From Thermodesulfobacteriota bacterium (GTDB lineage: Bacteria > Desulfobacterota > Desulfarculia > JACQYL01), in assembly GCA_963675595.2 (NCBI GenBank), contig CAXXLZ010000002.1, positions 2,528,001-2,592,000 on the forward strand: a stretch of 64,000 nt of DNA. The letters run 5' to 3'. Numbering within the stretch: the first letter of the stretch is position 1; each line of letters begins with the position of its first letter. A model generated the notes under the pieces. That model had not been told where the DNA came from and did no database searches. It saw only the letters and a list, made by a program, of their open reading frames with translations. Shown here in pieces: positions 1,539-11,844 of this stretch. The translations under genes and the position numbers were made by a program.

Positions 1539-3369
1539 CTGATCTTTGACAGTTCAAAAAAACTAATGCAGTAATTTCAGCTGCTTATACGAAAAAGAAA
1601 GGTTTATGGCACTACGTTTTGGTGCTCCTGGAGAGTCTGCAAAGTGGGCGGCGGTTTGAGGCCGACGGCTTGGAAGATGTGGTAGGCGCGGCCCTGGAAT
1701 TCCGTTCTGAGGAGGTAGGACTTCTCCGTGACCTGTAGATGGATGGCTTTGAAGGCTTCGAGGTCCAGGAGAACTTGGTCCCAGGGGATGTCGATTTCTT
1801 TGGTCTTGAGCTGTTTCTGCAGCGCGATCTTCAGGTATAGGGCCAGGAAATTGCAGAAGATGTGACCTTGAACGCGTTGACACCGTTGGTGGAACACGGG
1901 CCTGACTTCCAGGGCCGATTTGAGGTCCCGGAAGGCTCTTTCCACCTGCCACAGGCGTTTGTAGGTGACCGCGACTTCATCGGCGGGAATGTCGGTACTG
2001 GTGAGGAGAACATACTTGCCGTCGAAGCGGGCGTCGTCCTTGACCTTGGCGGGATCGATGCGCACGGTTTCCCGGTCGAGCTTGATGAATTTCCTGAAGC
2101 CCTTGTTTCCCACCAGAGACTGGGGCCCCTGTTTTTTCAGGGTGGTTTTCAGTTTTTCCACAAGGGCCGATCGGGTGGCCTCGTCTTTGGCCGCTTGGTC
2201 TTGGTTGTAACAGAGGACGTAACGGCATCCGTTCAGATGAATCTCCTTGAACCACAAGGTGGGAGTGAGCGCTTGGTAGTAGCCCGGAGTGTCCACCACT
2301 TGGCCTCGGACATCCTGGTAACGGCGCATGGGGATGCCCACGATGTAGTCGATACCGGCACGCTCCAGTTCCACCAGATTGTCGACGCCGACCATGCCGC
2401 GGTCCGAGACCAGGACCACGTTGTTCAGGGAGAACCGACGCTTGACCAGGGCGATGATGCGTTTGATGGTGGTGACGTCCGCCGTGTTCCCTTCCCAGAA
2501 CTGACAGGAAAGGGGATATCCTTTTCGGGACATGACCACACCCACCAACACCTGTTTGCGGTCTGGACGATGGTCCTTGGAGAACCCGTACCGAGCCAAC
2601 TCGGCAGGCCCCCGGCCCTCGAAGTAGACCGAGGTGGTGTCGAAGAAAACGAGATCCACCCCGTAATCGAAGAGGTCGCGCCCCCGACGGAAAAGTTCCT
2701 TCTCGATTTCGGGCTGATATTCGGCCAGGAAATCCATGGATCGATAGAGGTGCTGAAGTTCCAGGTCGTCGAAGCCTTCACCGTGGACGTTCTGAATCCA
2801 ACGGCTCGCGGCGAGATCGGATCCCGGACGGACCAAGCGTTGGCAGACACAGGCAAAGACCGCGCGCTCCAGATCGAAGCGATAATCGGAGCGAGAAGCG
2901 AGAGATCGGAGTACCACATCGAGCCCCAAGGTCTTCCAGAGTTTCTCGATCACCAGAACGGTTCCCCAGGACTTGGCCCAGTCTGCCTTGACACTACCTT
3001 CCTTATAAAGATTGATGACTTGATTCCGGGTGGAGAACTTGGCGAGACTGGTAAGAACCCCGTCCAAGGCACCCGATTCACGGAGCTTGTCGAGACGACC
3101 CAGTGTACATATAACTTTCTGTTTTACCTTCTTATCCTGGCGATAGTTCTCCACGATCTGAAGATATTCATGCTCGGATCCGCCGCTTTTGACCTTTTTG
3201 ACGCGTGCAAACATGAAACAAATTGTACGGAATACAGGTCGGCGGAGTCAAGGAAAAAATCGGACATATTGGCACTACGTTTGGAGCCTCGGAAAAAGGC
3301 CAGCCTAATCATTTCGGTAAGTTAGGCGGGAGAGGCCCACTTTTTCACCCTCCAACTGTCAAAGATGAG
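1539..3369 (-). mobile_element. IS1634-family insertion sequence, 1831 bp
   Basis: TIRs CTGATCTTTGACAGTT (1539-1554) and AACTGTCAAAGATGAG (3354-3369) match 15/16 as inverted repeats. Flanked by 5-bp TSD TCAAA (1534-1538, 3370-3374). Contains a single transposase ORF. Confidence 0.93.
1604..3214 (-). CDS. IS1634-family DDE transposase (536 aa)
   Basis: YLQIVENYR N-terminus, FFDTTSVYFEG, GFSKDHRPD, VSDRGM, YKRLWQVERAFRDLKS..RPVFH motifs. Confidence 0.93.
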   Translation of the reverse strand: MFARVKKVKSGGSEHEYLQIVENYRQDKKVKQKVICTLGRLDKLRESGALDGVLTSLAKFSTRNQVINLYKEGSVKADWAKSWGTVLVIEKLWKTLGLDVVLRSLASRSDYRFDLERAVFACVCQRLVRPGSDLAASRWIQNVHGEGFDDLELQHLYRSMDFLAEYQPEIEKELFRRGRDLFDYGVDLVFFDTTSVYFEGRGPAELARYGFSKDHRPDRKQVLVGVVMSRKGYPLSCQFWEGNTADVTTIKRIIALVKRRFSLNNVVLVSDRGMVGVDNLVELERAGIDYIVGIPMRRYQDVRGQVVDTPGYYQALTPTLWFKEIHLNGCRYVLCYNQDQAAKDEATRSALVEKLKTTLKKQGPQSLVGNKGFRKFIKLDRETVRIDPAKVKDDARFDGKYVLLTSTDIPADEVAVTYKRLWQVERAFRDLKSALEVRPVFHQRCQRVQGHIFCNFLALYLKIALQKQLKTKEIDIPWDQVLLDLEAFKAIHLQVTEKSYLLRTEFQGRAYHIFQAVGLKPPPTLQTLQEHQNVVP

Positions 3370-3374
3370 TCAAA

Positions 3375-3836
3375 ATGGCTCCCTTGCACGACATCGGCAA
3401 GGTTGGAATCCCCGATGCCATTCTGCTCAAACCCGACCGATTGACCGATGATGAATATGAGATAATGAAGGAGCACACCAAACTTGGGGCGGAAATCCTC
3501 GCGGTGGACGGTCAAGGGTCCAATGTCGGCGGCTTTCTAAAAATCGCCGAAGAAATTGCCTTATGTCACCATGAGAAGTGGGACGGGACCGGCTACCCCA
3601 GAGGTTTGAAAGGCGAGGACATCCCTTTGCCCGGGTGCATCATGGCTTTGGCCGACGTTTATGATGCTTTGATCAGCAAACGTTATTACAAACCACCTTT
3701 CAGCCATGAAAAGGCAATGGGAATCATCAAAGACGGCAAGGGGACCCACTTCCACCCCGACGTGGTGGATGCGTTTTTAGAGATAAACGAAGAATTCAGA
3801 GCAATATCCCTTAATTTTACCGATACCGAAGAATAA
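3375..3836 (+). pseudogene. HD-GYP domain, 3' part of the IS-interrupted gene
   Basis: APLHDIGKVGIPD..L.KP, HHEKWDGTGYP, ADVYDAL. Removing the IS plus one TSD gives the in-frame join ATG TTC AAA ATG GCT (MFKMA) and a 660-aa protein. Confidence 0.92.
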
Positions 3837-4613: not shown

Positions 4614-5993
4614 TTATCCCGCCGGAATGCCGAACAGGGTGACGGCAAGGCAGACCAGGGCAAGAAAGCCGTATGCCGGCGTCCTGCTTTTTGGGGAATC
4701 AACGGAAGGAACGCGTTTCACAACCAACACGGCGACGACGCACTGTAAGGCATAGTAAAGGGCGAAGGCCCTGGAGGCGTAGCTGATGATCTCATACACA
4801 TTCGTGACCCACGTGATTGCGATGGCGGCCGCGGAAACGATCATATAATTGAATCCGGAGTGAATCCTGCTTCTGAAGATCGATTCCAGCAGGCCGGAAC
4901 ACCCGGCGTCATCGGCCGTGGCCGCCGAGAACTGGCTTCCGAGAGCGGTGAGTGTGATCAAGAGCGGCAAGATGGGTGCAACGGCTCCGGAAAGGCCGAC
5001 GATGGCTGTGATGCCCGTGTCCCCTCCCGCACCGGTCTTGTTCATGACCACCGTCATAAGCGCGACAAACACGATGTAGATCGCCGATGAAATGAGTTGC
5101 GCCCATCGCATGGTCCGGATGCGCTCCTCCCTCGGATGCTCGGACCCCAGAAAACGGGAGGTCTCGAAACCCTGCACCACGATGAGCATACCCATGAGAA
5201 GGCGGATGATATGGGACTTGTCCGACGGAAGCGCGACGGTGTGGAGTTGCCAAGCGCCGTCGCTCAGGGAAACAATGTTGTGATAGATGAGCCCGGCCAA
5301 CAGCGAAGCGATCATGCCTAAATTGATGCCGACCACCGTGCGTTCCACACGTTCGATCCCTTTCAAGCCGCGGATCGCGCCTGTGGCGCCGATTCCCACG
5401 AGTATCAGGGTGACGATGGCTTTGCCGAACCAAGGCTTGTCGGGTGAGACGTTGTGCAGAGCGAAGCTCGCGAGCAGTTGCAGGTAGTAGGACACGGAAA
5501 CGCAGTAGGCTCCCGCAAGTGCGAAGTGAGACGTCTTTTCCAGAAACCTCGCCGCCTCCCCGATTTCAACCCGGTGCGCCATGTTGTGGTGAGCGATGTG
5601 CAGCCTGTGCTCATCCCGCTTCAACTTTCCCGGGGCACCCTTCGTTTCCAGTATCTGTTCACCATAACGAATATTGAACCGGATCACCGAGCCCACGGCA
5701 TAGGCGAGGCAGAGCAAACCCGCCATGGCGAACACGGCATAGTTGCCCACGTTGGTGAAAAGCAACGGCGCGCAGACCAGAAAGCCGCTGCCCATGATGG
5801 AAGCCAGGGGAGTAATGGTGGCTCGCCACGCCGTGGAAGCAACCAGGGGACGAAAAGACAGGAGCATGCCGCCGACCCCTACGGCGGTCACGACGACGAT
5901 GATACTCGAAATCGGGATAGGCCACAAAACGATGCATTCCTCCGAGGGTGTTTCAGGATCGCTGCAAGGCGACGCGAAATCAACGGATTTCAT
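4614..5993 (-). CDS. APC-superfamily amino acid permease-like membrane protein (start uncertain)
   Basis: About 11-12 hydrophobic segments; TPLASIMGSGFL (TM1 break) and VQGFETSR (TM6 GxE) motifs. Confidence 0.75.
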   Translation of the reverse strand: MKSVDFASPCSDPETPSEECIVLWPIPISSIIVVVTAVGVGGMLLSFRPLVASTAWRATITPLASIMGSGFLVCAPLLFTNVGNYAVFAMAGLLCLAYAVGSVIRFNIRYGEQILETKGAPGKLKRDEHRLHIAHHNMAHRVEIGEAARFLEKTSHFALAGAYCVSVSYYLQLLASFALHNVSPDKPWFGKAIVTLILVGIGATGAIRGLKGIERVERTVVGINLGMIASLLAGLIYHNIVSLSDGAWQLHTVALPSDKSHIIRLLMGMLIVVQGFETSRFLGSEHPREERIRTMRWAQLISSAIYIVFVALMTVVMNKTGAGGDTGITAIVGLSGAVAPILPLLITLTALGSQFSAATADDAGCSGLLESIFRSRIHSGFNYMIVSAAAIAITWVTNVYEIISYASRAFALYYALQCVVAVLVVKRVPSVDSPKSRTPAYGFLALVCLAVTLFGIPAG

Positions 5994-6144: not shown

Positions 6145-6168
6145 TGCTTTTTGGTGGCGATGCAGGGA
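6145..6168 (-). repeat. att-like direct repeat: duplicated 3' end of tRNA-Met
   Basis: TGCTTTTTGGTGGCGATGCAGGGA is identical (24/24) to 11761-11784. Confidence 0.92.
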
Positions 6169-6506: not shown

Positions 6507-8582
6507 TCATGGTTCATTGGGCCATAGAGGACCTTCTTCCTGAGCCTGTTTCATAAGATCCAGAAACTGTGAAGGCTTCACCACCATTATCTTGGACTTA
6601 TCAAGCGCCTCATAAAACGCATTAAAAAGCCCCATAAGGTTATTATTATCAAAATCAGTGCCGCTTAGGTTTCTCACCCCATAAACAGCATAGAAATGAT
6701 GATTGAGATCATACGTATCCGTCAATAATTGACTAGCCAAAAACTGAAGCGTTTTTTCAAGGTCTGAGTAATTCTTCAATGTCGGATTGATAGTAATCAA
6801 AAATTGAGAAGCAGGCTTATCGTATATAAACTTACCAAAAATAGGTGGTATATTTTCATTGCTGCTGGGATGGTAAAAGATACCGTCAAGTTTGTCAATA
6901 ATATTGCCCAAATAGGTATAATTCGACCAGTCGTCCCGTTGAACATCATTACCAAATATCAATGCGGACTTGATTCCCGTACTCACAATAACGTCTGTCA
7001 TCGCATCGAGTTGATAAGCAAACTTCCAAGAGTTTTTATCGATTTCTCCCAGCGTATAACCGATGGTGGACGGTCCCAGCAAAAATTCATCGTTTTCCGT
7101 TGCATTAAGAATGTAGAAATTCCAGACATCCGGTTCCAGATAGTACATTGCCGGCGACATGGTCCATCCGACAGGAAATTTGCCCCTATAAGGACTTCCA
7201 TACCAGACCTTGCTATTCATGTTATTGGTCATAAGTTGAAGGTTATCTCCGTCTGACATAATGAACGTCATATAGGCTTTGGTTTTATCGTAAACAATAG
7301 ACGGATCGGTGTTTTTTGGTACTGGCAACGGTTTGCTGTTTGAGGAACTTAAAAGAGACAGATTCACGGACTGATCGGATGCAACAACAAAATTACCAGT
7401 TAAAGAGGCATGATACACGTAGTCATGCTCAGGCCAATACGAAGGCTTTACACCCCAACCATAAATAGGCAAGGAATAATCACCATTCAATATTGGCGTA
7501 AATCCAAAATAGTATGGAGCTTCATAAAATATCATTCCATTTAGCATGGTTGCATAGTCTCTTGGGCCACCGGCAAGAGTAGGAGTCAAGTTAACAATAA
7601 AGGTTTTGTTCAATTCACTATCATATTTGGTAATAAAATCATCGTACGAAGATATTGATAACACATCGCCTATCTCATTTAGGCCAAGCTCCTCTGCAAT
7701 AGTTATATCATTCTTCGGTAGAGGAATCGCTTTCTTTATTCCACAAAGGGTCACCGACATATTCAAGGTGATATCGAAGTCGTCATAAACAATATATCCT
7801 GATATATAATTCTCGAAATCCTTGACGATATCTTCAACCTGAGTCTTAGGATTAGACACAATTGAAAGAGGGGGGTCCTTCACTTCTGTTAAATAATTCT
7901 TTATTAATAAACTGGAAGTTCTTAACTCGTCGGTATTCTCCTCATCAGGAGGGTAATAATCATTAACTTGTGTTTTATAAAGATAAATTTGTGTACTGCT
8001 TTCTTTCGCTACGATTCCCTGGAGCGTCGTAAGAAGTACAAGGTCGGTATCGCTCATATTCTGAATATTCACAGGATACAACGTATCGACCGTAACAGGG
8101 CCGTTGATGAACGGGTCAAATCCCGCCGTCGGACCCTCTTGCACCGAAACCTGAACGAAATCCGATCCCAAATATGGCCATTCAAGGGTGCCGTCAGGCT
8201 TCTCTAAGGAAAAATAGAAGGTGTAGTCCCCTACCGGCAATGTCCCATCAAAGACCTGATAGTCTACGAGCTTGAACAATGGCGTCCTGGCACTCGGTTT
8301 GATTCCCCGCTCCCATCCATCCGGGTATACATAACTGAACCAGTCTCTCAAGGGTGAAAAGACAGCGTCGGCCGCAATCCACCAATCAGCATCTTGGTCC
8401 ACTTCTTCTCCGGGGTATACACTGACCGTGACGGAAACAGGAGTATCGGAAGATACAACAGCAGCGTCTTTGTCATTTGCCCTAATATCAACGAAAGGAC
8501 GTTCAACAGCGCATACCCGGAGCGAGGGATAAACTTGAAAGCAAAGCAGAAAACAGCAAACGGCAACCAAATATCTTTTCAT
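6507..8582 (-). CDS. Secreted GxGYxYP-family putative glycoside hydrolase (691 aa)
   Basis: N-terminal signal peptide; LTTLQGIVAK...IY, FIMSDGDNLQ, RGKFPVGWTMSP and GPSTIGY motifs typical of the family. Markedly AT-rich. Confidence 0.72.
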   Translation of the reverse strand: MKRYLVAVCCFLLCFQVYPSLRVCAVERPFVDIRANDKDAAVVSSDTPVSVTVSVYPGEEVDQDADWWIAADAVFSPLRDWFSYVYPDGWERGIKPSARTPLFKLVDYQVFDGTLPVGDYTFYFSLEKPDGTLEWPYLGSDFVQVSVQEGPTAGFDPFINGPVTVDTLYPVNIQNMSDTDLVLLTTLQGIVAKESSTQIYLYKTQVNDYYPPDEENTDELRTSSLLIKNYLTEVKDPPLSIVSNPKTQVEDIVKDFENYISGYIVYDDFDITLNMSVTLCGIKKAIPLPKNDITIAEELGLNEIGDVLSISSYDDFITKYDSELNKTFIVNLTPTLAGGPRDYATMLNGMIFYEAPYYFGFTPILNGDYSLPIYGWGVKPSYWPEHDYVYHASLTGNFVVASDQSVNLSLLSSSNSKPLPVPKNTDPSIVYDKTKAYMTFIMSDGDNLQLMTNNMNSKVWYGSPYRGKFPVGWTMSPAMYYLEPDVWNFYILNATENDEFLLGPSTIGYTLGEIDKNSWKFAYQLDAMTDVIVSTGIKSALIFGNDVQRDDWSNYTYLGNIIDKLDGIFYHPSSNENIPPIFGKFIYDKPASQFLITINPTLKNYSDLEKTLQFLASQLLTDTYDLNHHFYAVYGVRNLSGTDFDNNNLMGLFNAFYEALDKSKIMVVKPSQFLDLMKQAQEEGPLWPNEP

Positions 8583-8887: not shown

Positions 8888-9613
8888 GTGGTCAAGCTGG
8901 ATCAATACGGCTACGTTAGGACGGCACATCGGTCGTACGGCAAGGGGATCAGGGAGATCGCTCGAGAGACGGGGCACTCCGGGAACACGATTAAGAGAGC
9001 ATTGCGGGAGGAATACGGCGGTTACGGCGAGAGGGGACATCAGCCTTATCCTTCTTTGGGGCCGTTTCTCAAAACGATTGACGCTTGGCCGACGGAAGAC
9101 CGGGAGCGGCCTCGGAAGCAATGACATACGGCGAGACGAATTTACCGCCGGCTTAAGAAAGAAGATGGGTTCGAGGGCGGGGAGAGCACGGTAAGGCGTT
9201 ACGTGCGTGAAGCGCGAAGGCGGCTGGGCGTTGGTGAACCCCGGGTCTTTATTCCCCTTGAGCCCGATCTCGGTATGGAGGCCGAGGTGGATTGGGGCGG
9301 CTGCCACGCCGTCGTGGCCGGGGGGTGCGTGAAGCTCAAGCTGTTTTGCATGCGTTCCAAGGGCGGCGGCAAACCGTTTGTACGCTGTTTTCCGTGCGAA
9401 CGGCAACAGGCGCTGTTTGAAGGACACATGGAAGCCTTCGCCTTCCACGGAGGAGTCTTCCGACGGTTGATCTACGACAACCTGACCACCGCGGTGGAGA
9501 AGGTGTTCAAAGGCAAGAAACGCAAGATTCAGGAAAGCTTCGAGCGATTTCGGGCGTACTACGGCTTTGTGCCCCGATTCTGCAATCGCAGCCGGGCGCA
9601 TGAGAAGGGATAA
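8888..9613 (+). pseudogene. istA: IS21-family transposase IstA remnant
   Basis: GIREIARETGHS.NT HTH. KQ*HTARRIY contains an in-frame TGA at 9122-9124. EAEVDWG and FGG-like HGGVF..LIYDNL motifs. Truncated at AHEKG*; no istB. Confidence 0.88.
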
Positions 9614-9761
9614 GCATGCTCTCGTGGGAGAAGCGTACGGAGTCATGAAGGGGCAAGCCAACTAGACTGAAACGTCAACTTGCGCCCTCGTTCCAACCGG
9701 CCAACACCTTCAAGCGAACCGGTGGTCGGAAAAACACCCCAAAATCCAAAAGGGAGCACTC

Positions 9762-11498
9762 ATGTCCGACAACACACCTCACCCATTTGTCCTGGAGTTG
9801 GCCGACGAAACCCGCAAAGGCAAGGTCAGCCGACGTGATTTCTTGAAATATGCCACGCTAATGGGCGTTTCATTAGGAGCGGCGGGGAGCCTGATCGGCG
9901 TCACTCCGGCCCAGGCGGCCGAGGCGGCGAACATGGACTGGGCCTCCCTGCGGAGGCAGAGCCCCTTCGAGATCAAAAACCTGCTCATTGCGGAGGCAAA
10001 AAAGACTGCGGAGAGCAAACCCGGCGGCGAATGGATCAATGCGGGGCGCGGCAATCCGAATTTTCTGAATACCACGGCCCGCAAAGCCCTTTCCCTGCTT
10101 ACCCTCTTCGCCGTAGAACAGGCCGAAACCGGTTCACATTTCAATGACGGCGGGTACCGGGTTTCTCAGGCAGGCATTGCGAAGAGATTCGACGCGTTCA
10201 TGGCCCGGCATGTTGAAGATCCCGGGGGCAAATGTTTGCATGACGCCATTCAGTATGCATGCACCGGTCTGGGCATGAATCCGGACGACGTGGTCTTTCA
10301 GCTCACAGACGGTATCCAGGGCGACTTCTATCCGGATCCTCCGCGAATTTTTCCGGTAACAGAGGCGATCTTGAACAGATATCTGGATCGAGTGGTCTTC
10401 TCGGGACATCCGCCCGAGGGCAAGTTTCACCTGTTCGCCACGGAAGGCGCTACGGCGGCAATGATCTATATTTTCAACTCGTTGCGTGAGAATATGGTGC
10501 TCAACCCCGGTGACAAGGTGGCCATCGTAACTCCCATTTTCTCGCCCTATCTGGAGCTGCCCGTGCTCGCCGACTACGGCCTCGAGACCGTATACATCAA
10601 AGGCGACGAGTCCATGGGCTGGCAGATTCCGGACGAAGAGACGGCCAAACTCAAAGACCCAAAAATCAAAGCGCTTTACATGGTGAATCCCACCAACCCC
10701 ACTTCCGTGTCCCTCAACTCGGACACCACACACAGCATGGCCTCCACTATCCGCCGGTATAATCCGGACATGGTCATCATCTCCGATACGGTCTACGCGA
10801 GCTTTGTGGACAAATTCAATACCTTCGGTCGGGAGCTGCCCAGGAACATCCTCGGTGTCTATTCGTTTTCCAAGTACTTCGGAGTAACCGGCTGGCGGCT
10901 CGGAGTGGTGATGGTCCACGAGGATTGCGTCATAGACAAGATCATTGCCAGGCTGCCCAAGCGTGATCAGGCGAAGCTCGACCTGCGCTATCGGCTGACC
11001 TCCACGCATCCCGAAACCATCAGATTCTATCAACGTCTGGAAATGGATTCGCGCCAGGTTGCTCTGGCTCATACCGGAGGGCTTTCCGGTCCGCAGCAGA
11101 CGGCCATGAGCCTGTTCGCCCTTTTCGAATTGCTGGACGAGACTTTTGCCTACAAGGCGTCCATCATGGGCATCCTGAAAAGGCGCTGGACCGCCCTGTT
11201 CAAGGCTTTGGACATACCTGAGCCCACGGGAGACAACCTGACACGCTATTATGCGCTCATCGACCTGGGACGCCTGGCCGAAGCAAAGCACGGCAAGGCA
11301 TTTGCGGCAAAGATGATGAAGAGCGAGCCCCTGGATTTTGTATTCCGGCTGGCCCAAAAAGAGGCCACGGTGTGTCTGCCCGGTAAGGGCTTTGCGGGCC
11401 CGGACTGGTCGCTACGCGTGGCCCTCGCCAATATATCCGAGGAGGATTGCACCGCCATTGGCAACAATATCCTGAAGGTGCTGGAAAGCTACAAGTGA
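9762..11498 (+). CDS. aspD: Aspartate 4-decarboxylase / bifunctional aspartate aminotransferase (PLP) with Tat signal peptide
   Basis: SPFEIKN.L, NAGRGNPN, LFATEGATAAM, VNPTNP, SDTVY, YSFSKYFGVTGWRLG (PLP Lys) and HTGGLS.PQQ. N-terminus has SRRDFLK, an h-region and AQA. Confidence 0.88.
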   Translation: MSDNTPHPFVLELADETRKGKVSRRDFLKYATLMGVSLGAAGSLIGVTPAQAAEAANMDWASLRRQSPFEIKNLLIAEAKKTAESKPGGEWINAGRGNPNFLNTTARKALSLLTLFAVEQAETGSHFNDGGYRVSQAGIAKRFDAFMARHVEDPGGKCLHDAIQYACTGLGMNPDDVVFQLTDGIQGDFYPDPPRIFPVTEAILNRYLDRVVFSGHPPEGKFHLFATEGATAAMIYIFNSLRENMVLNPGDKVAIVTPIFSPYLELPVLADYGLETVYIKGDESMGWQIPDEETAKLKDPKIKALYMVNPTNPTSVSLNSDTTHSMASTIRRYNPDMVIISDTVYASFVDKFNTFGRELPRNILGVYSFSKYFGVTGWRLGVVMVHEDCVIDKIIARLPKRDQAKLDLRYRLTSTHPETIRFYQRLEMDSRQVALAHTGGLSGPQQTAMSLFALFELLDETFAYKASIMGILKRRWTALFKALDIPEPTGDNLTRYYALIDLGRLAEAKHGKAFAAKMMKSEPLDFVFRLAQKEATVCLPGKGFAGPDWSLRVALANISEEDCTAIGNNILKVLESYK

Positions 11499-11755: not shown

Positions 11756-11767
11756 CAAATTGCTTTT

Positions 11768-11844
11768 TGGTGGCGATGCAGGGACTTGAACCCCGGACAC
11801 TGCGGATATGAGCCGCATGCTCTAACCGGCTGAGCTACATCGCC
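11768..11844 (-). tRNA. tRNA-Met (CAT), probably the elongator
   Basis: GGCGATGTAGCTCAGCCGGTTAGAGCATGCGGCTCATATCCGCAGTGTCCGGGGTTCAAGTCCCTGCATCGCCACCA: 77-nt cloverleaf with CAT anticodon, paired 1:72 and encoded CCA. Confidence 0.95.

Follow-up and report, generated by a model that had tools for sequence, protein, structure and literature searches.

The 64,000-nucleotide window analysed here, a stretch of contig CAXXLZ010000002.1 from a Thermodesulfobacteriota bacterium, encodes a complete aspartate 4-decarboxylase (AspD) preceded by a leader with the anatomy of a twin-arginine translocation (Tat) signal. AspD is a pyridoxal 5'-phosphate (PLP) enzyme known as cytoplasmic, as a tool of industrial alanine production and as half of a proton-motive decarboxylation cycle. 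The protein described here is instead probably a Tat-exported periplasmic L-aspartate 4-decarboxylase that pre-processes external aspartate. The observation made in the original prediction is confirmed and its interpretation is supported in part; the export reading passed every computational test applied; export, cleavage site, substrate and physiological role are predicted from the sequence. The features of the gene are as follows.

9762..11498, + strand: aspD open reading frame (ORF), 578 aa, full AspD-family PLP enzyme
9751..9756, + strand: Shine-Dalgarno sequence AGGGAG, ending 5 nt upstream of the ATG at 9762, read from the sequence
9762..9827, + strand: leader n-region, residues 1-22 (MSDNTPHPFVLELADETRKGKV), unusually long, clade consensus HPFVxELAEETxxG, from alignments
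9828..9848, + strand: twin-arginine motif S23-R-R-D-F-L-K29, from the sequence
9849..9902, + strand: leader h-region, residues 30-47 (YATLMGVSLGAAGSLIGV), uncharged, Gly/Ser/Ala-rich
9903..9917, + strand: leader c-region T48-P-A-Q-A52, with a predicted signal-peptidase I site AQA↓AEA
9918..11498, + strand: mature AspD-family PLP enzyme, residues 53-578 plus stop codon, from family models, the 2zy2_A alignment and AlphaFold2 (AF2)
10863..10883, + strand: SFSKYFG motif, residues 368-374, aligning with YSFSKYFG of 2zy2_A
10872-10874, + strand: PLP Schiff-base lysine K371, inside SFSKYFG
Met58 (MDWASL): alternative internal start, with GAGG 8 nt upstream of its ATG

Family assignment

The ORF reached 653.1 bits with the NCBIfam model NF006755 (aspartate transaminase/aspartate 4-decarboxylase, cut-off 321), which spans residues 59-578 only, and 563.5 bits with TIGR03801 (cut-off 435.1), thus lying above both equivalog models; Pfam recognizes a class I/II aminotransferase domain. 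Among solved structures the closest is the cytoplasmic AspD 2zy2_A (E 3.6e-125), whose chain residues 3-517 match query residues 58-573 end to end, including the N-terminal helical part. The match to 2zy2_A thus begins at query residue 58, which leaves residues 1-57 as an N-terminal add-on. That this is a full AspD-like PLP enzyme with an intact SFSKYFG motif, as first proposed, is borne out by these matches. Over the same span the protein shares about 41-46% identity with the solved cytoplasmic AspD/AsdA enzymes (EC 4.1.1.12; 2ZY2, 2ZY3/2ZY4 and 3FDD), together with their SFSK lysine, NAGRGNP arginine and C-terminal carboxylate-binding arginine. It differs from them in its 57-residue Tat leader, in belonging to a separate clade, and in four clade-specific residues and a near-universal cysteine pair, C538/C563. 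Public annotation of its homologues reads merely 'bifunctional aspartate transaminase/aspartate 4-decarboxylase'.

Leader anatomy

Tat signals carry the consensus S/T-R-R-x-F-L-K near the N-terminus. The sequence features expected of a Tat substrate are all present here: SRRDFLK, an h-region free of charge and at least about 13 residues long, and a cleavage site of the small-x-small type. The motif is followed by 24 residues without charge (Y30-A53), and A50-Q-A52 precedes A53, so that cleavage is predicted after A52. This agrees with the leader of about 53 aa, with SRRDFLK, a hydrophobic region and AQA, on which the original prediction was based. In an AF2 monomer model built from a 31-row alignment (mean predicted local distance difference test score, pLDDT, 87.8), the leader forms short helices (pLDDT 60-83), those at residues 24-33 and 38-44 having pLDDT 72-75.

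Conservation of the leader among relatives

Homologues comprised the best 120 from a 5.8-billion protein set, and 269 proteins were pooled overall. Of these, 174 rows of 500-640 aa were kept, and 95 proteins (fragments, longer forms and a single N-truncated row) were set aside. Among the best 120 homologues, many are 576-601 aa long, cover 98-100% of the query and have the same N-terminal architecture. According to a simple rule, 86 of the 174 rows carry a Tat-type leader, 11 a Sec-type leader and 7 another extension, and 70 have none. In a FastTree phylogeny computed on the columns past the leader only (GRGNP onward, with Shimodaira-Hasegawa-like support), the query falls within a single clade of 86 rows (support 100), of which 83 are Tat-type. 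Two of the remaining three, P0057 and P0058, are gene calls starting inside the h-region, and the third, P0059, reads KR instead of RR. The presence of the leader in 83 of the 86 rows of one clade indicates, at the level of sequence, that it arose once and was retained. A neighbouring group of 32 rows contains seven Sec-type, three Tat-type and 22 leaderless members, 21 of the latter in one leaderless clade.

Homologues that keep the leader, the existence of which the first reading had left to be looked for, are thus numerous. R24 and R25 occur without exception in an alignment of 31 diverse members, SRRDF[FL][KR] variants prevail among the 83 Tat-type clade members, and 70 of these 83 have an AxA motif at the corresponding place. 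Named carriers include Maridesulfovibrio, Pseudodesulfovibrio, Salidesulfovibrio, Desulfoplanes, Desulfogranum, Sulfurovum sp. NBC37-1, Allorhodopirellula, Dethiosulfatarculus and an Elusimicrobia metagenome-assembled genome. AspD-family export seems to have several forms. Sec-type signal peptides were seen on other branches of the family (P0093, P0098, P0107, P0109, P0111, P0113, P0118, P0123, P0144 and P0145), and KR replaces RR in two members, P0059 and P0060.

The same alignments bear on whether the leader is removed. Residues 17-42 match the Rieske Tat-signal model PF10399 weakly (E 0.0056, below cut-off), as would be expected if the leader were a Tat-inserted, uncleaved anchor like that of Rieske proteins, tethering the enzyme to the outer face of the cytoplasmic membrane. 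Moreover, 13 of the 83 members have no strict AxA, and one protein, P0061, has the lipobox GMSGC after its RR leader, which points to membrane attachment in at least some members. The query itself has a textbook AQA↓A site, at a place where most of the clade has AxA, and its Gly/Ser/Ala-rich h-region is weakly hydrophobic, like those of cleaved Tat signals. We therefore consider an anchored enzyme improbable in this case, and a released periplasmic one the better reading of the leader.

Choice of start codon

If translation began at Met58, or if the leader were non-functional, the protein would be an ordinary cytoplasmic AspD. Met58 aligns with the start of the solved cytoplasmic AspDs, and the GAGG upstream of its ATG makes some internal initiation in this one gene possible. 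The original prediction had named a start at Met58, with a leader never shared by homologues, as the case against it, and the comparison went the other way. Besides the wide occurrence of the leader, Met is found at column 58 in only seven of the 83 clade members, the commonest residues there being P and I, and 59 of the 83 have no Met anywhere from the h-region to SPFE. The ATG at 9762 is itself preceded by a strong Shine-Dalgarno sequence, and the twin arginines are invariant.

The leader also evolves as a coding sequence. Among 12 Tat-type genes with DNA available, the proportion of non-synonymous differences (pN) in the leader is lower than that of synonymous differences (pS) in all 66 pairs; between the window and L016, pN is 0.277 and pS 0.819, synonymous sites being saturated, hence no ratio is given. 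By the same comparison of pN with pS across the 12 genes, the leader is under weaker constraint than the mature part. In a related strain, represented by contigs of run X3, the leader has a synonymous change, the substitution L38V and a 9-nt insertion at 9906 that duplicates AQA and keeps the frame. Taken together, these data make an unused leader highly improbable. The duplicated AQA in the c-region of the X3 strain gives it two possible cleavage sites.

Active site and substrate

K371 (in S-x-S-K) and R96 (in N-A-G-R-G-N-P) align with the same motifs of 2zy2_A, and each is found in 83 of 83 clade rows. In the AspD structure of P. dacunhae, the NAGRGNP arginine (Arg37) reportedly sits beside the PLP ring. 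The 83 rows likewise all hold K72, R96, Y190, N312, D342, Y345, S368, S370, K371, R379 and R552, and each of these 11 active-site residues is also the majority residue among leaderless relatives. Only four columns separate the clade from leaderless AspDs, namely N334/R, T354/S, A554/S and C563/Y. Judged by these alignments, the protein is an AspD-family member with an unchanged active site. The loss of a catalytic arginine at position 542 (K542 here, the Arg of LPGRGF in 2zy2) was considered and rejected, as the column varies in all classes and its commonest residue in leaderless forms is E.

An exported enzyme could nevertheless act mainly on another substrate, such as L-cysteine sulfinate (β-desulfination to alanine and sulfite) or another β-substituted amino acid, or serve mainly as a transaminase. 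L-aspartate β-decarboxylase is named among desulfinating PLP enzymes in a passage of PMC6100217, named carriers of the leader include sulfur-cycling bacteria (Desulfovibrionaceae, Desulfogranum and Sulfurovum), and the four clade-specific positions might reflect a change of function. Yet nothing places those positions at the active site, where all columns examined are as in leaderless AspDs; the protein lies above the cut-offs of two equivalog AspD models; and no sulfur-related neighbour recurs at 10 Tat-type loci. A substrate other than aspartate is thus unlikely, and decarboxylation of external aspartate remains the reaction we favour.

Host genome and neighbouring genes

The host genome (G000, 6.79 Mb, 98% complete) encodes TatC (PF00902, 256.8 bits). 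It has a single AspD-family gene above cut-off, so there is no second, cytoplasmic copy of AspD in the host. No member of the Asp-Al_Ex/AspT family (PF06826) was matched in this 98%-complete genome, nor was an SDF-type acidic amino-acid carrier found in it. Alanine dehydrogenase is present (525.7 bits, cut-off 391.85).

The absence of an adjacent AspT antiporter, to which the original prediction had drawn attention, holds for the gene and extends to the window and the whole host genome, but it is less telling than it first appeared. In Variovorax, used as a control, the AspT gene lies directly upstream of aspD. Using this AspT in tblastn searches, we detected an adjacent homologue at seven of 80 AspD loci (L030, L031, L032, L034, L053, L087 and L037), and none in the window or in 14 Tat-type loci, defined by a match from query residue 22 or earlier. 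Because aspT adjoins so few AspD loci overall, leaderless ones included, the contrast drawn from the missing neighbour is weakened. Of 10 other genomes with the Tat form, four have a PF06826 protein, never adjacent to aspD, and six have none. Pfam annotation of 117 ORFs at 10 Tat-type loci revealed no recurring neighbour gene, be it a transporter or a chaperone: aspD travels alone. Chemotaxis and sensor genes lie beside it at L020, L035 and L016; such genes are common and their proximity was treated as chance.

Further hints of an extracytoplasmic location

The Tat clade has cysteines at alignment positions 83 and 89, located between SPFE and NAGRGNP, in 66% and 57% of its rows; the figures are 82% and 82% for exported sister rows and 1% for leaderless rows, although these rows are related and the counts not independent. 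With the same reservation about related rows, C538 is found in 100% of the Tat clade and 39% of leaderless rows, and C563 in 99% and 10%, respectively. Because paired cysteines track export, they suggest disulfides.

The leader type itself is not confined to AspD. Run against the host genome in six frames (37,721 segments), a hidden Markov model (HMM) built from 83 leaders retrieved AspD itself (E 1.3e-22) and, as a second match, the N-terminus of another protein (E 9.4e-10), the next match having E 0.013. The second protein (L096:2142-3830, - strand) is a family-5 periplasmic solute-binding protein, SBP_bac_5 (PF00496, E 1e-59), and its leader, HPLMEELAHGLATGGITRREFLRYTALLGLS, can be compared with that of AspD, HPFVLELADETRKGKVSRRDFLKYATLMGVS; both share the long n-region pattern HPFVxELAxExxxGxxSRRDFLKY. 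At least one family that acts exclusively in the periplasm therefore shares the leader type of AspD. In another carrier genome, a profile of seven leaders retrieved a similar leader (E 2.7e-4; L107:451-1596, - strand), on a protein that looks solute-binding-like by sequence. Such long-n-region leaders may represent a distinct, reusable class of Tat leader. In a leader-only search of the 5.8-billion protein set, only the four closest AspDs passed E 0.01; the 57-aa query is too short for significance there, which makes this search uninformative on other families.

Proposed role and comparison with known systems

In the route we propose, the enzyme would fold and bind PLP at K371 in the cytoplasm. 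TatABC would then recognize the SRRDFLK leader and translocate the enzyme in its folded, probably dimeric, state, and signal peptidase I would cleave after A52. The mature enzyme would convert external L-aspartate to L-alanine and CO2. Its likely role would be to turn an acidic amino acid, for which the host genome yielded no classical carrier, into neutral alanine outside the cell, the alanine then being taken up and oxidised via alanine dehydrogenase. The acid buffering or external alanine supply suggested in the original prediction is likewise a hypothetical role. With no antiporter, and with the proton consumed outside, the reaction cannot build proton-motive force.

Several points weigh against this proposal. 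Solved AspDs are dodecamers and prone to abortive transamination that needs keto acids, two properties that would have to be accommodated in the periplasm. Decarboxylating aspartate externally uses up an external proton and yields no energy, and its benefit is not obvious. No member of the Na+/alanine symporter family, a possible route of alanine uptake, was found in the host genome, and no recurring neighbour at the 10 Tat-type loci speaks for any particular role. The query, with both C538 and C563, is without the exported-type pair at positions 83/89. The clade members that lack a strict AxA may in some cases stay anchored. The Tat and Sec classes come from a home-made regular expression for the RR motif and a hydrophobicity rule applied to the part before SPFE, not from a trained predictor. 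Finally, the sole RNA evidence is a 178-nt contig of an RNA library (X12) that covers 9639-9816, i.e. 123 nt upstream of the ATG and 18 codons; it is a weak hint, possibly DNA carry-over, and missing coverage elsewhere is uninformative.

Among known systems, the closest in chemistry is the AspD/AspT cycle of Tetragenococcus halophilus, in which aspartate decarboxylation is combined with electrogenic Asp:Ala exchange, as outlined in a section of PMC12462496. The enzyme family and the chemical step are alike, whereas here AspT is absent and an enzyme placed outside would need no transmembrane exchange. The proposed role rather resembles that of a periplasmic asparaginase or of the periplasmic PLP racemase of P. 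putida.

Export of PLP enzymes also has parallels. PvdN of Pseudomonas aeruginosa binds PLP. Both PvdN/PA2394 and PA2531 of this species are annotated as aminotransferases and carry RR signal peptides, and Table 2 of PMC6085387 counts them among 34 Tat-dependent proteins. Given that both are Tat-dependent, Tat export of this fold is not new in itself. They belong to other subfamilies with other reactions (pyoverdine maturation in the case of PvdN), are not AspD-family members and have short n-regions. Alr of P. putida KT2440 and BsrV of Vibrio cholerae (PMC7890096) are periplasmic broad-spectrum PLP racemases; the main role of Alr is amino-acid catabolism, according to PMC6034422. These, too, are PLP enzymes acting on free periplasmic amino acids, but their fold and reaction differ from those of the present protein; no mention of Tat was found in PMC6034422. 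No paper on an exported AspD was found in the literature searched, which did not cover AspD structure papers in subscription journals.

A coherent clade with export signals implies a second physiological use of AspD chemistry, outside the cytoplasm, in Desulfovibrionaceae, Desulfobulbia-type bacteria, Sulfurovum, Planctomycetes and Elusimicrobia records. If the proposal is true, a decarboxylase joins the short list of periplasmic PLP enzymes, and Tat has a large, PLP-bearing and possibly oligomeric cargo. Models of aspartate use would likewise need revision for sediment anaerobes with genomes annotated simply 'aspartate 4-decarboxylase'. A broader and speculative extension, which we regard as rather unlikely to hold, is that exported AspDs, whether Tat, Sec or lipoprotein forms, would provide extracytoplasmic conversion of aspartate or of cysteine sulfinate (with release of sulfite at a place where it is available to sulfur metabolism) in anaerobic, sulfur-cycling and sediment bacteria, the long n-region marking a leader class common to periplasmic solute-binding proteins and read by a common factor before Tat export.

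Probable arrival at a tRNA-Met gene

Horizontal transfer probably brought the gene into this genome, within a small islet beside tRNA-Met that has the following features.

11768..11844, - strand: tRNA-Met (CAT), from ARAGORN and Rfam RF00005 (67 bits), 3' end facing aspD
11761..11784, no strand: proximal copy of a 24-nt direct repeat, comprising the 3' 17 nt of tRNA-Met and 7 nt of flank
6145..6168, no strand: distal copy of the 24-nt direct repeat, likely the far end of the islet
6507..8582, - strand: gene for a GxGYxYP-family putative glycoside hydrolase (PF14323, PF20957, PF20958 and PF16216), 39-40% GC
8888..9610, + strand: remnant of an insertion sequence (IS) transposase of the IS21 family, in two frames and truncated (NCBIfam NF033546)

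The two copies of the 24-nt repeat are identical, and its 17-nt core has two matches in the window, a number reached by 0 of 100 shuffles. The 5.6 kb between the repeats contain the GxGYxYP gene, the frame-broken IS21 transposase and aspD. Two parts of the transposase match NF033546 (294 positions), 8888-9121 to positions 4-66 (E 5e-7) and 9203-9610 to positions 101-228 (E 4.2e-33), both below the full-length cut-off. The GC content of aspD is 56-57%; that of the GxGYxYP gene contrasts with 56-60% around it. No integrase was detected among the scanned ORFs between the repeats, a scan that left out small ORFs.

In two genomes of the same family, G001 and G002, the order APH-CinA-MBL-tRNA-Met is kept and synteny is lost exactly past that tRNA; the genes that follow it there map 1.8-2 Mb away in G000. 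No AspD was found in either of these genomes or in two genomes of the same order. An attempt to set the far boundary of the islet by synteny failed, as neither flank of the window could be aligned with the sequences beside the tRNA in the relatives, and this boundary is set by the direct repeat only. In the class of the host, 13 of 95 genomes have an AspD-family match, which extends from the leader on only in G000, G031 and G082 (55-59% identity). The closest named relatives of the window AspD, among the best 120 homologues, are from Desulfovibrionaceae, at about 71% identity. The break in synteny, the direct repeat and these relatives together make horizontal arrival at tRNA-Met well supported, and the tRNA islet proposed in the original prediction gains support from the repeat of the tRNA-Met 3' end and from the break seen in the two same-family genomes.

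Some further observations concern the islet and its surroundings. The GxGYxYP protein has an N-terminal hydrophobic signal and is clearly foreign cargo of the islet. Just outside the distal repeat, a 459-aa ORF (4617-5993, - strand) matches neither Pfam nor NCBIfam, and the three nearest genomes searched gave no homologue of it. Further out, a CHASE2-domain ORF (18-1571) and an HD-domain ORF (3375-3833) flank a DDE (IS4-like) transposase gene (1607-3214, - strand), which may have split one sensor gene. In run X1, which has the best coverage of the stretch, contig depth over the IS21 remnant (9400-9610) is 4-10x that of aspD, pointing to more copies of IS21. Single contigs continue into unlike sequence at 9609, 11498 and 11656, a hint of alternative arrangements in the sample.

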